A DNA stretch of 38,013 bases from Candidatus Nezhaarchaeota archaeon WYZ-LMO8 (GTDB lineage Archaea; Thermoproteota; Methanomethylicia; Nezhaarchaeales; WYZ-LMO8). Of this stretch, positions 4,253-24,733 are shown piece by piece. A model generated the notes under the pieces. It saw nothing but the letters and a program-made list of their open reading frames with translations. It searched no databases and was not told where the DNA came from. The stretch covers positions 1-38,013 of the forward strand of contig QNVF01000008.1 of assembly GCA_004347965.1 (NCBI GenBank). The letters are read 5' to 3'. The position numbers and the translations under genes are program-made. Numbering within the stretch: the stretch's first letter is position 1; each line of letters begins with the position of its first letter.

Positions 4253-4980
4253 ATGGTGGCCGTTAAGGTCTCCAACTTAGTTAAGCGTTTTGGAAGAACT
4301 GTTGTTCTTAAGGGTTTAAGCTTTGACGTCAAGGAGGGAGAGATCTTCGGTCTAGTTGGGCCCAATGGCCTGGGAAAACTACTACGCTCAGAATTTTAGC
4401 CACCCTCCTCGCTCCTTCTGACGGCATTGTCGAGATCTTTGGCTTAAATATAGTGAAGAAGGCCAGTGACGTCAGGAAGATCATTAGCTATTTGCCTGAG
4501 GAAGCAGGGATATATCCTAGGCTTACTGGGCTTGAATACCTTAAGTTCATGGCGAACCTTTACGCCAAGGATCGTGGAGAGGTCGAAGAGATGGTTAACG
4601 AAGGTTTGAAGATAGCCAGCTTAGGTGATAAGATTAGAGAGAAAACCGCGACCTATAGTAAAGGTATGAAGAGAAGGCTCTTGATAGCTAGAGCATTAAT
4701 GGTTAGACCTAAGCTAGCGATTCTTGATGAGCCAACAAGCGGACTCGACGTCCTCCACGCCTATCACGTAAGGAGGATCATAAAGGAATACGTAAAGCAG
4801 CAAGGTTTAACGGTTATTTTGTCAAGCCACAACATGCTTGAAGTAGACTTTCTCTGCGATAGAGTTGCTCTAATACATGATGGTCAAATAGTCGTTGAAG
4901 GTTCTCCGCATGCTCTTAAAGAGACATATGAGGCTAAGAATCTTGAAGAGGTCTTCGCTAAGGTGACTGGACATGGTTAG
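4253..4980 (+). pseudogene. ABC transporter ATP-binding subunit split by a -1 frameshift in Walker A (mutation, sequencing error or recoding)
   Basis: One frame gives [10 protein letters not shown]; the -1 frame continues [10 protein letters not shown]...YSKGMKRR...ILDEPTSGLD...SSHN. Confidence 0.8.
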
Positions 4981-21198: not shown

Positions 21199-23022
21199 GT
21201 GAGTAGCGTAGAGAGTAAGAGGATTAGGTCGCCAATACTTTGCGTACTGGGGCATGTTGACGTTGGGAAGACGCTTCTCCTAGACAAGATTAGAGGTACT
21301 GCAACGATGTTTAGGGAAGTTGGGGCCATGATGCAGCGCTCTTCAGGGGGCGCTGCATGGTAGACCCAACACATTGGAGCTTCTTTCCTGCCTTGGTCTG
21401 CTCTTGAGAAGATATGTGGTCCATTACTTAAGAGTATAAGTGTTGAGATTAAGATACCTGGCTTCTTGGTCATTGATACTCCAGGTCATGAGGTCTTCGT
21501 TAACTTGAGGAGGAGAGGAGGCTCGATAGCTGACATGGCTATTCTGGTTATAGACATCCTTGAAGGGTTTGAGGAGATAACTTATGAGTGTTTGGAGATC
21601 CTGAAGGCTAGGAAGACCCCATTTGTGGTTGCTGCAAACAAGATAGATAAGATACCTGGATGGGTTGAGAACGAGTTTAAGCCTTTCATTGAGACAATAA
21701 AGCTGCAGCCTCCTCACGTTCAAAAGAGGCTTGATGAGCTCGTCTACAACATAGTTGCTAAGTTTGAAGAGTTGGGATTCCAAGCTGATAGATATGATAG
21801 GATAAGGGACTTCACGAGGACTGTAGCTATAATACCTACCAGCGCTAAGACTGGAGAGGGCATACCAGATCTTTTACTTGTCTTAGCTGGCTTATCTCAA
21901 AGATACATGTTAAAGAGGCTCTACGTTGAGGAATCAACGGCTAAGGGGGTAGTGCTTGAGTGCAGGGAGCTACCAGGCTTGGGTACGGTAGCTGACGTGA
22001 TAATCTACGATGGCATATTAAGAAAGGATGACACGATAGTGCTTGGCGGGCTCAAGGATCCCATAGTTACTAAGATCAGAAGCTTACTAATGCCTAAGCC
22101 AATGGATGAGATGAGGGATCCTGAGGATAAGTTCAAGAGCATTGATGAAGTTACGGCAGCTGCTGGTGTGAGGATTGTAGCTCATGGGCTTGATGAAGCC
22201 GTAGCTGGAAGCCCCCTATTTTCAGCGAGAAGTCAAGCTGAGATAGAGATGGCCATAAAGCAGGTATTTGAGGAGATGGCGAAGATCAGGATAACAACAG
22301 ACATCACTGGAGTTGTAGTCAAAGCTGACACACTAGGTTCTCTTGAAGCGCTGGTGCTAAAACTGCAGGAGCATGGCGTTCCGGTAAGGCTTGCTGATGT
22401 AGGTAAGATATCTAAGAGGGATGTGGTGGAAGCCTCCATAACGAGGGAGAAGAACCCGCACTATGGTGTGATTTTGGCGTTCAATGTAGGCATAAACCCT
22501 GATGCCGAACAGGAAGTAGAAAGTAGGGGTATACCGGTCTTCAGGAGCAACGTCATCTACAGGCTGATAGATGAGTACTTAGAATGGACCAAGAAGAGGA
22601 TGGAGGAGGAACGTAGACAGACTCTATCCTCCCTAATACTGCCAGGTAAAGCGCAGATACTAAAGGGCTACGTCTTCAGGAGGAGCGACCCAGCAATAGT
22701 TGGAGTCGAAATATTGACTGGAAGGTTGAGACCAGGATATCCATTAATGAACTCTAAAGGTAGGAGACTCGGTGTGATAATGCAGATACAGGAGCAGAAG
22801 AAGAGTTTAAGTGAGGCTGTAGCTAGACAAGCTGTTGCAATATCGATTAAGGGTGACGTGATAATAGGTAGGCAAGTCGATGAAGGAGATTACATCTACG
22901 TTGACGTACCCCCGGAGCACGTAAGGATATTGAAGGAGAAGTTCTTGGATCAATTATCGAAGGAAGAGCTTGAGCTCCTCGATGAAATAGTTAAAATGAG
23001 AAAAGCTGCTGGTAGATACTAG
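21199..23022 (+). CDS. infB: Translation initiation factor aIF5B (IF-2), two exons: join(21199..21330,21364..23022), 596 aa after splicing
   Basis: [20 protein letters not shown] after removing 33 nt, DTPGHE, NKID, SAKTGEG. Confidence 0.92.
21331..21363 (+). other. Putative 33-nt BHB intron in the aIF5B mRNA
   Basis: GUUGGG/CCCAAC exon helix, AGA bulge, 4-bp GCCA/UGGU helix, UGA bulge, UGCAGCGC/GCGCUGCA intron stem; ends in an in-frame UAG. Confidence 0.88.
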
Positions 23023-23080
23023 TCGTGCTCGACGACCTCAAAGTTTTTAGCTAAGTCGTAGAGTGTGTTCATGCTAAGGG

Positions 23081-23452
23081 GTGAAAGTAACGCCCGAGTT
23101 TAAAGTGGTTGTATCTGATCCATCAACTGGAAAAGCTCAGCAAGTAACTGTTAGCGGACCACAAGCAAATGCATTGATAGGTCTCAGGATAGGAGACGAG
23201 GTGGACGGTGCATTGATTGGAGTGCCCGGAGTAAGGCTTGTAATTAAAGGAGGAAGTGATAGAAGCGGAGCTCCTATGAGAGCTGATCTTCCAGGTCCTG
23301 TAAAGCGAAGATTACTGCTAAGTCAGGGTCCAGGATTTAGGCCAACGAGAAAGGGTTTGAGGAAGAGGAAGCTTGTCAGAGGAAACACGGTATCTGAGGA
23401 CATAGTTCAGATTAACATGGTTATAAAGCGTGAGGAGGTTAAGCATGGCTGA
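23081..23452 (+). CDS. rps6e: 30S ribosomal protein S6e
   Basis: [33 protein letters not shown]. Confidence 0.96.
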
Positions 23453-24733
23453 AGAGTGGATGAAGAGACAAGCTGAACTTAACATCGGTACAACGGGTCA
23501 CGTAGATCACGGGAAGACGACCTTGACTTGGGCTCTATCTGGAGTATGGGCTTCGAGACACTCTGAGGAGCTAAGGAGAGGGATAACTATTAAGCTGGGT
23601 TATGCAGATACAATCGTGTTGAAGTGCCCTAAGTGCCCACCTCCACAATGCTACACAACTTATGCCCTATCAGGAAGTACATGTAAGCATTGTGGATCTA
23701 AACTAGAGTTTGTTAGGAAGTACTCATTCGTAGACTGCCCTGGACACGAGATTGCACGCCCATAGCGGGCGTGCAACGTGATATGCTAATGGCTACAATG
23801 CTTGCAGGAGCAACGATGTTCGATGGCGCCATACTGGTAATAGATGCTACGGTTCCATGCCCTCAACCTCAAACGCGAGAGCACTTAAAGGCTCTTGAGA
23901 TAATGGACGTGAAGAACGTAGTAGTAGTGCAGAACAAGATTGAGGTTGTCCCGAAGGAGAAGGTTATAGAGAACTATCGTCAAATAAGGGAGTTTCTAAA
24001 GGACACGATGTTGCACGATGCACCGATAATCCCAATATCTGCGCTTCACAAAGCAAACCTCGACGTCCTAATAGAGACCATTGAGGAGAAGATTCCAACA
24101 CCAAAGAGGGATCCATCGAAACCTCTTAGAGCACTGATAGCTAGGTCCTTCGATGTAAATAGGCCTGGAACCCCTCCACAAGAGCTTAAGGGTGGTGTTT
24201 TGGGTGGATCTATAATTCAAGGAGTGGCCAAAGTTGGTGAGGAGATCGAGATAAGGCCTGGAATTAGAGTGGAGAAGGGTGGAGGAAGAGTCGAGTACGA
24301 GCCTCTATTCACTGAAATAGTTAGTTTAAAGGCTGGCGATGTCGAGGTGGAGGAAGCTAGACCAGGAGGCTTAGTAGGTTTTGGCACTCTCCTAGATCCA
24401 TCACTCACAAAGGCTGATTCTCTCGCAGGTAACATTATAGGCAAGCCGGGCACCCTACCACCAACGTTATCAGATCTTGAGTTGGAGACCTTCCTTTTCG
24501 AGAGAGCAGTAGGCACAGTAGATATGGTGAAGGTTGAAAACATAAGGCCTAATGAGGTCTTAATGATAAATGTTGGTACCACAACAACTCTTGGAGTCGT
24601 GGTTAAGGCGTCTAAGGACGTAGTTTCCATCAGGCTACGAAGACCAGTATGCGCTGAGCCGAAAACTAGAGTGGCTATAAGTCGGCAGATAGCTGGTAGG
24701 TTTAGGTTAATAGGTTATGGGATAATAAGGTAG
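23445..24733 (+). CDS. eif2g: Translation initiation factor 2 gamma subunit, two exons: join(23445..23750,23783..24733), 418 aa after splicing
   Basis: [18 protein letters not shown], Zn knuckle, DCPGHE|MLMATML after removing 32 nt, [14 protein letters not shown]. Confidence 0.92.
23751..23782 (+). other. Putative 32-nt BHB intron in the aIF2-gamma mRNA
   Basis: 4-bp CACG/CGUG helix, AGA and AUA bulges, 10-bp UUGCACGCCC/GGGCGUGCAA stem; contains UAG and shifts the frame. Confidence 0.85.

Follow-up and report, generated by a model that had tools for sequence, protein, structure and literature searches.

How can two GTPases of translation initiation be produced from genes whose reading frames are each broken, inside a switch motif, by a short insert? 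This question is raised by a 38,013-nt stretch of DNA from Candidatus Nezhaarchaeota archaeon WYZ-LMO8 (contig QNVF01000008.1, positions 1 to 38,013 of the forward strand; the window in the following), which carries the genes encoding the initiation factors aIF5B and aIF2-gamma. Judged by the observed RNA structures, their conservation and covariation, the exact restoration of both frames and the distribution among relatives, both inserts are very probably archaeal bulge-helix-bulge (BHB) pre-mRNA introns, which would be removed by the splicing endonuclease and an RNA ligase. The best reading is that they are new members of the cbf5 type of mRNA introns, located in new genes and new lineages. 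A scan of genome contigs yielded 38 loci for comparison (L001 to L038). Eleven of them (L028-L038) represent bacterial GTPase relatives and were not considered further, so that 27 archaeal loci remained.

Structure and predicted removal of the two inserts

A preliminary description of this DNA had proposed BHB-type mini-introns of nearly equal size (33 and 32 nt), 2.4 kb apart, in the mRNAs of two translation-initiation GTPases, each lying between codons at a switch motif, containing an in-frame UAG and ending with four nucleotides complementary to its own upstream exon plus two bulge nucleotides. This picture is borne out, including the need to remove both inserts to obtain the proteins. The inserts are separated by 2,387 nt, both are in phase 0, and the in-frame UAG is found at 21361-21363 in aIF5B and at 23763-23765, within the loop, in aIF2-gamma. 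The aIF5B insert is located directly before the Thr of GxxTQ, the G2 motif (switch I), and the aIF2-gamma insert directly after DxPGHE, the G3 motif (switch II). The Pfam GTP_EFTU coordinates fit the position of the break, with exon 1 ending at profile position 80 and exon 2 starting at position 85.

The aIF5B intron begins with an A, the third nucleotide of bulge 1, which is followed by a 10-bp stem h' (21332-21341/21348-21357) with the loop UUCAGG. On its 3' side, UGGU (21358-21361) pairs with GCCA of the upstream exon to form helix H, and AG constitutes the first two nucleotides of bulge 2; the 3' strand of helix h, CCCAAC, is located in exon 2 at 21365-21370. In the fold of the 71-nt region, an exon-exon helix of 6 bp is followed by a 3-nt bulge, an exon-intron helix of 4 bp, a stem of roughly 10 bp and a mirror-image bulge, with a free energy of -34.0 kcal/mol (z = -4.7; equal stability in 0/200 shuffles). 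The aIF5B intron thus has the strict hBHBh' form, with h of 6 bp, H of 4 bp, h' of 10 bp and the bulges UGA and AGA. For the seven aIF5B sequences with the insert, RNAalifold predicted the full h-B-H-B-h' structure unaided. Across the helices, 96.4% of 140 cells are paired, compared with 81.3% in shuffles (0/500 as high), and this value drops to 31-36% when the partners are slid. Furthermore, compensatory changes on both sides are found in 9 of the 20 pairs, which was reached in 3/500 shuffles.

The aIF2-gamma intron consists of an A, a 10-bp stem h' (23752-23761/23767-23776) with the loop AUAGC, the segment CGUG (23777-23780), which forms helix H with CACG of the upstream exon (23745-23748), and a terminal AU. 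Its 71-nt fold (-26.5 kcal/mol, z = -3.2; 1/200 shuffles as stable) comprises the 4-bp helix, the 5' bulge AGA and the 10-bp stem, and the outer pairing is weak and remote. In the four genomes with this intron, sequence variation is confined to the loop: none of the 27 non-loop intron positions varies, whereas changes affect 10 of the 48 exon positions on the flanks (Fisher 0.0079) and 9 of the 16 third codon positions (2e-5). The aIF2-gamma intron is under selection, with clear constraint. A further relative can be deduced from two clusters of protein models, P0002 and the exon-2 model P0158: the tail of the former and the head of the latter overlap in two frames, and the longest contigs of both clusters are equally long. 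Read back from these proteins, most bases of a 31-nt insert are fixed, and one stem pair shows a compensatory change from C-G to U-A.

How the full-length proteins might arise can be proposed from the established processing of BHB motifs. After transcription, each insert would fold with flanking exon bases into a 4-bp helix between two 3-nt bulges, which would form a full helix-BHB-helix motif in aIF5B and a relaxed motif with the 3' site in a loop in aIF2-gamma. The tRNA-splicing endonuclease EndA would cut each bulge between the second and the third nucleotide, and an RtcB-type ligase would join the exons, leading to full-length aIF5B (...EVGAM-TQHIGA...) and aIF2-gamma (...DCPGHE-MLMATML...). 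Translation of unspliced mRNA would meet the in-frame stop or run into the wrong frame and could produce only truncated N-terminal peptides. A cut after the second bulge nucleotide predicts the precise junction in 11 of 11 instances (two each in the window and L001-L003, and one each in L004, L005 and L014), and in all 11 the cut sites given by the BHB geometry coincide with the gaps in protein homology. When the introns are removed, the frames are restored and the resulting sequences are colinear with homologues that lack an intron.

A stable hairpin and a stop codon near the break, as found in each insert, could also point to translational recoding, in which the ribosome bypasses or frameshifts over the insert with the hairpin as a stimulator. 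In gene 60 of phage T4, a 50-nt gap is bypassed during translation, which requires matched take-off and landing codons. The inserts described here resemble it in being short non-coding gaps with a hairpin and a stop codon in essential genes; however, no matched codons are present, and the conserved geometry is that of a BHB motif. In aIF5B, AUG precedes the gap whereas UAG or CAA precedes exon 2, and in aIF2-gamma the codons are GAG or GAA before the gap versus GAU before exon 2. Bypassing is unlikely because the take-off and landing codons differ. Moreover, the conserved 4-bp exon-intron helix, the 3-nt bulges and the covarying 6-bp exon-exon helix of aIF5B describe a substrate of EndA rather than a bypass signal, and the BHB register is kept in 11/11 instances although the inserts differ in length (29-35 nt). 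Recoding is therefore considered very improbable.

Several observations weigh against the interpretation of the inserts as spliced BHB introns. The splicing itself, the enzymes and the chemistry are carried over from the established knowledge of BHB processing, and no EndA or RtcB gene was found among the 46 window ORFs (open reading frames) scanned against Pfam. The aIF5B stem of L001 has a U-U mismatch in place of its first pair. The aIF2-gamma intron deviates from the strict hBHBh' motif, as no conserved exon-exon helix closes its 3' bulge in the four genomes; its 3' site is thus of the relaxed (bulge-helix-loop) type, which calls for an endonuclease of relaxed specificity. Its stems are identical in the four DNA sequences and show no covariation. 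In addition, a BHB descriptor built for this analysis gave two matches in the window, compared with an average of 1.6 over 10 dinucleotide shuffles (one match versus 1.6 with a second setting). Since shuffled sequences match as often, the BHB shape alone proves nothing. Both window matches obtained with this descriptor are the aIF5B and aIF2-gamma sites, and excision lengthens the spanning frame at both from 10-11 to at least 108 codons. What is beyond chance is that both matches restore long conserved frames and recur in relatives.

The preliminary description had also predicted more such introns genome-wide, and none has come to light so far: the window and the 27 archaeal loci, 337,302 nt in total, contain no further short frame-restoring BHB candidate. 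A low-stringency descriptor combined with frame restoration was uninformative, as chance fusions of neighboring frames swamped the signal. A stricter run gave 634 matches, 19 of which restore a frame, and 11 of these 19 are the two known sites. The other eight (L003, L004, L015, L019, L021 twice, L022 and L024) are 78-144 nt long and sit at gene ends, on the antisense strand or in AT-rich spacers; judging by their sequence, they are taken as chance matches. No tRNA gene was found in the window and 13 loci, and no Rfam family in the window.

Table 1. Positions of the two GTPase genes, their exons and introns, and the gene between them (window coordinates).
Feature	Position	Strand	Details
aIF5B gene, intron included	21199..23022	+	reading frames, Pfam
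aIF5B exon 1	21199..21330	+	44 codons, GTG start, P-loop GHVDVGKT, end ...EVGAM; GTP_EFTU profile 4-33; tblastn to 21 loci
Exon-1 helix strands of the aIF5B BHB motif	21319..21328	+	h GUUGGG 21319-21324; H GCCA 21325-21328
aIF5B intron	21331..21363	+	33 nt; same site in L001-L005, L014
aIF5B exon 2	21364..23022	+	552 codons + stop, begins TQHIGAS; GTP_EFTU, GTP_EFTU_D2, IF-2, GTP_EFTU_D4
Ribosomal protein S6e gene	23081..23452	+	between both GTPase genes, outside the introns, in the conserved aIF5B-S6e-aIF2-gamma block
aIF2-gamma gene, intron included	23445..24733	+	reading frames, Pfam
aIF2-gamma exon 1	23445..23750	+	102 codons, end ...FVDCPGHE
aIF2-gamma intron	23751..23782	+	32 nt, shifts frame; same site in L001-L003
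aIF2-gamma exon 2	23783..24733	+	316 codons + stop, begins MLMATML; GTP_EFTU 85-187, GTP_EFTU_D2, eIF2_C

Occurrence in relatives and in annotated gene models

The nearest relatives of the window aIF2-gamma are found in metagenome-assembled genomes of Candidatus Nezhaarchaeales with 84-87% protein identity, followed by Methanomethylicia (71%) and then by Baldrarchaeota, Thermoprotei and others. The aIF5B site is readable in 22 sequences (the window, L001-L005, L009-L012 and L014-L025); L008 and L027 carry aIF5B, but the loci stop short of the site, and L006, L007, L013 and L026 show no aIF5B. An insert at the identical codon boundary is present in 7 of these 22 sequences and absent from 15. 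Its length is 33 nt in the window, 30, 29 and 30 nt in Nezhaarchaeales L001-L003, 29 nt in Methanomethylicia L004, 33 nt in Baldrarchaeota L005 and 33 nt in L014. The aIF2-gamma insert occurs in 4 of 28 readable sequences, all of which are close Nezhaarchaeales relatives, with 32 nt in the window and 35, 32 and 33 nt in L001-L003. Every insert has a length that is not a multiple of three or contains an in-frame UAG or UAA, so that splicing is required to produce the protein.

Since all sequences come from metagenome-assembled genomes, and the window contains another broken gene, which encodes an ABC ATPase, assembly errors or pseudogene lesions have to be considered as the source of the interruptions. 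Both sites, however, are interrupted in independent assemblies (7/22 for aIF5B and 4/28 for aIF2-gamma) and in dozens of independent gene models, and compensatory changes are found as well as invariant stems beside varying wobble positions. Apart from the inserts, the two GTPase genes are intact, syntenic and highly conserved, and their exons are under clear purifying selection (84-93% protein identity). Recurrence, covariation and constraint thus exclude artefact or decay almost completely, and of all explanations weighed here, this one is given the least credence.

The presence of the aIF5B intron is also reflected in annotated proteins. Twenty-six short proteins match the aIF5B exon-1 ORF, and 23 of them end with ...GAM plus a short unrelated tail; nine of these 23 truncated models end with Trp-stop, as predicted from UGGU followed by A(A/G), and the remaining three of the 26 are ordinary uninterrupted partial proteins. 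The sources of these matches include Ca. Nezhaarchaeales, Ca. Methanosuratincola sp., Ca. Methanosuratincola petrocarbonis, Ca. Methanomethylicus sp. and Methanomethylicaceae and are mostly annotated as "hypothetical protein". This public annotation of the aIF5B exon-1 ORF, in which the gene is mis-modelled, is seen for example in P0131, P0136, P0139, P0140 and P0142. The residues preceding the aIF5B splice site were also noted to differ between lineages: V-G-A-M is found in the intron-bearing Methanomethylicia and Nezhaarchaeales, P-G-T-M in the intron-less neighbors (L009-L012) and A-G-G-I in Baldrarchaeota. The aIF5B exon codons that pair within the BHB motif may be co-adapted with the intron.

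In the case of aIF2-gamma, the ends of the best 120 of 424 short proteins matching the exon-1 ORF were inspected. Two of these 120 stop just after GHE with an unrelated tail, namely P0001, which shares the ending ...GHEIARP with the window, and P0002, in which ...GHE is followed by nine other residues; the rest are ordinary partial proteins or other truncations. A protein search with exon 2 gave 7,908 matches, of which the best 120 were considered. Among these, the 14 clusters that reach 83% identity or more consist without exception of exon-2-only models of 313-322 amino acids (aa), which start at or just before MLMATML; some of them are encoded on long contigs, the longest of 374,802 nt. None of the 99 models that exceed 345 aa is more than 72% identical, and these include one labelled Nezhaarchaeota (68%, 422 aa) and one from Methanosuratincola petrocarbonis (411 aa). 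Within the best 120 matches, this division indicates that the aIF2-gamma intron is fixed in one subclade and absent outside it. Five further aIF2-gamma models (P0192, P0209, P0215, P0237 and P0253) start with MLMATML, MATML or MLAG at 61-64% identity to the window, one of them on a contig of 232,990 nt. They may represent further lineages interrupted at this site or mis-called starts.

Since gene callers annotate exon-1 and exon-2 proteins separately in many records, it could be assumed that each factor is produced as two assembling polypeptides and that the insert is a mere spacer. In aIF5B, however, the first ATG, GTG or TTG in the exon-2 frame is located 34 codons downstream (21466), and initiation at this codon would delete the G2/switch I segment, which makes separate polypeptides unlikely. 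In addition, the breaks lie inside the switch motifs of the GTPases and not between domains, and what is conserved in the spacer is its structure, not a start signal. Split genes thus have as little to recommend them as recoding, and excision of the inserts from the mRNA is the preferred explanation.

Age and origin of the introns

To place the aIF5B intron in the history of its host gene, a tree of 24 exon-2 translations was calculated. The intron-bearing sequences form two groups, one of which contains Methanomethylicia and Nezhaarchaeales (five sequences; Shimodaira-Hasegawa-like approximate likelihood ratio test (SH-aLRT) 96) and the other L005 and L014 (SH-aLRT 100), and intron-less sequences of the Thermoprotei type fall between them. 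The tree requires two or more changes of state, and a single intron-bearing clade is rejected by the approximately unbiased test (p = 0.00046). This implies that the intron was gained once, long ago, and then lost in some lineages, or that it reached this one site repeatedly, by gain or by transfer. The stems of different clades, including those of L004 versus Nezhaarchaeales, are no more alike than structure-preserving shuffles (best value 117/2000), so the stem sequences cannot separate an ancient origin from repeated gain. The aIF5B intron is proposed to be old and fixed throughout Methanomethylicia and Nezhaarchaeales, with the same site occupied in Baldrarchaeota, and the aIF2-gamma intron would be a younger, separate acquisition in one Nezhaarchaeales subclade.

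The similarity of the two stems and a common origin of both introns were likewise part of the preliminary description. The first claim holds for the window, where the alignment of the aIF5B and aIF2-gamma introns scores 28 compared with 16.4 +/- 3.8 in the null distribution (20/2000 structure-preserving shuffles as high), and fails in the sister genomes, where the likeness does not exceed that of shuffles (1472/2000 in L001, for which the whole core was shuffled, 816/2000 in L002 and 315/2000 in L003). The second is not supported, as the likeness is found in only one of four genomes and the distributions are very different. It would mean that both introns belong to a single mobile mini-intron family, in which one arose from the other or each goes back to a tRNA intron, for instance through reverse splicing. 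Besides the window alignment, the common size class and architecture of both introns would fit such a family. The distributions, however, do not: Methanomethylicia and Baldrarchaeota also possess the aIF5B intron, whereas that of aIF2-gamma is restricted to a single subclade, in which the aIF2-gamma proteins are at least 83% identical. The likeness test is itself low in power, given that aIF5B introns at the same site do not reach significance across clades either. A mobile family is therefore regarded as improbable, and two separately acquired introns remain the favored explanation.

Relation to known introns, significance and gene neighborhood

The cbf5 pre-mRNA intron is reportedly the subject of studies by Watanabe in 2002 and Yoshinari in 2006. 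According to passages of a later paper, the pre-mRNA of this pseudouridine synthase contains a BHB intron in Desulfurococcales and Sulfolobales, and archaeal pre-mRNA splicing had been confirmed for cbf5 and no other gene; the same passages associate relaxed BHB motifs (bulge-helix-loop) with hetero-oligomeric crenarchaeal endonucleases and give a size of 11-175 nt for tRNA introns (PMC2738675). In the relevant part of an endonuclease paper from 2025, only the cbf5 work is cited for introns in protein genes (PMC12397907), and passages of PMC13149111, PMC7531240 and PMC11291895 (tRNA introns only) contribute nothing further in this respect. No report of BHB introns in aIF5B or aIF2-gamma was found in the main text of open-access papers and preprints, although an earlier mention elsewhere is possible.

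As far as the cbf5 intron is described in these passages, it shares several features with the introns presented here: it is a short BHB or relaxed BHB intron within a protein gene of an archaeon of the TACK group (Thaumarchaeota, Aigarchaeota, Crenarchaeota and Korarchaeota), it breaks the frame and is mistaken by annotators for a frameshift or a split gene, its patchy distribution implies gain and loss, and it is tied to endonucleases of relaxed specificity. In contrast to cbf5, the hosts are aIF5B and aIF2-gamma, so that the introns are of the same kind but not orthologous, the lineages are Methanomethylicia/Nezhaarchaeales and the Asgard group Baldrarchaeota, and two introns are located in one operon-like block. 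Furthermore, splicing of cbf5 has been shown by experiment, whereas that of aIF5B and aIF2-gamma is predicted. With the BHB introns of tRNA and rRNA, they have the recognition motif, the predicted cut between bulge nucleotides 2 and 3 and the tRNA-intron size class in common. They differ in that they interrupt mRNAs, between codons and in phase 0, and in that the exon strands of their helices also encode protein, which places these strands under a double constraint.

Two further host genes would thus be added to cbf5, both encoding essential translation-initiation GTPases, and the aIF5B intron appears to be fixed across a whole class and to occupy the same site in an Asgard lineage. One of the species concerned, Methanosuratincola petrocarbonis, is a cultured methanogen, and archaeal mRNA splicing would become directly testable in such an organism. 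The introns would also explain models annotated as "hypothetical protein" and truncated IF-2, and split models of this kind can distort genome-completeness estimates and phylogenomic marker sets. In addition, the aIF5B intron provides a clean case in which repeated gain at one site can be set against an ancient origin with repeated loss.

Two bolder ideas are, taken jointly, a long shot: that splicing is regulated and limiting, so that the capacity of EndA and RtcB gates aIF2-gamma and aIF5B, and that the aIF5B intron predates the split of TACK and Asgard archaea. If the first were true, both the carrier of the initiator Met-tRNAi (aIF2-gamma) and the subunit-joining GTPase (aIF5B) would be gated, and an archaeal checkpoint would link translation initiation to tRNA and rRNA maturation with a logic similar to that of IRE1-HAC1/XBP1. 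In HAC1/XBP1, a small mRNA intron is removed by an endonuclease and a tRNA-type ligase without the spliceosome, and the frame change switches the protein output. This IRE1-dependent unconventional splicing of eukaryotes, as mentioned in a passage of PMC13149111, resembles the predicted archaeal process in the small mRNA intron, the use of an endonuclease and a tRNA-type ligase and the frame-changing removal. It differs in that IRE1 and not EndA cuts another RNA motif, and in that a proven regulatory switch there is a hypothesis here. If the second idea were true, the position of an mRNA intron would have been kept since before eukaryotes arose.

According to a Pfam scan of 46 ORFs, the window belongs to an archaeal chromosome and carries genes for ribosomal proteins, RNA polymerase and translation factors. 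On the + strand, the gene order is NDK, aIF5B, S6e and aIF2-gamma, and the end of S6e (23452) overlaps the start of aIF2-gamma (23445). The order and orientation of aIF5B, S6e and aIF2-gamma are kept in 21 of the 27 archaeal loci (L001-L005, L009-L012 and L014-L025), and the block spans genomes from Thermoproteota-type to Methanobacteriota and DPANN-like ones (DPANN: Diapherotrites, Parvarchaeota, Aenigmarchaeota, Nanoarchaeota and Nanohaloarchaeota). One of these loci, L020, is labelled "uncultured Fibrobacterota bacterium"; it carries archaeal aIF5B, S6e and aIF2-gamma and falls within Methanobacteriaceae in the aIF5B tree, and the bin is probably mislabelled or contaminated.

Far from the two GTPase genes, the gene for an ABC-transporter ATPase (4253..4980, + strand) is split within the Walker A motif, with the break at 4372-4378. 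Its two parts (4253..4399 and the rest to 4980) are related by a -1 shift in GGGAAAA, a heptamer of the form X_XXY_YYZ. Programmed -1 frameshifting was considered and rejected, as the fold of the 80 nt downstream is unremarkable (z = -0.03); it is likelier that the break reflects a homopolymer error or that the gene is a pseudogene.

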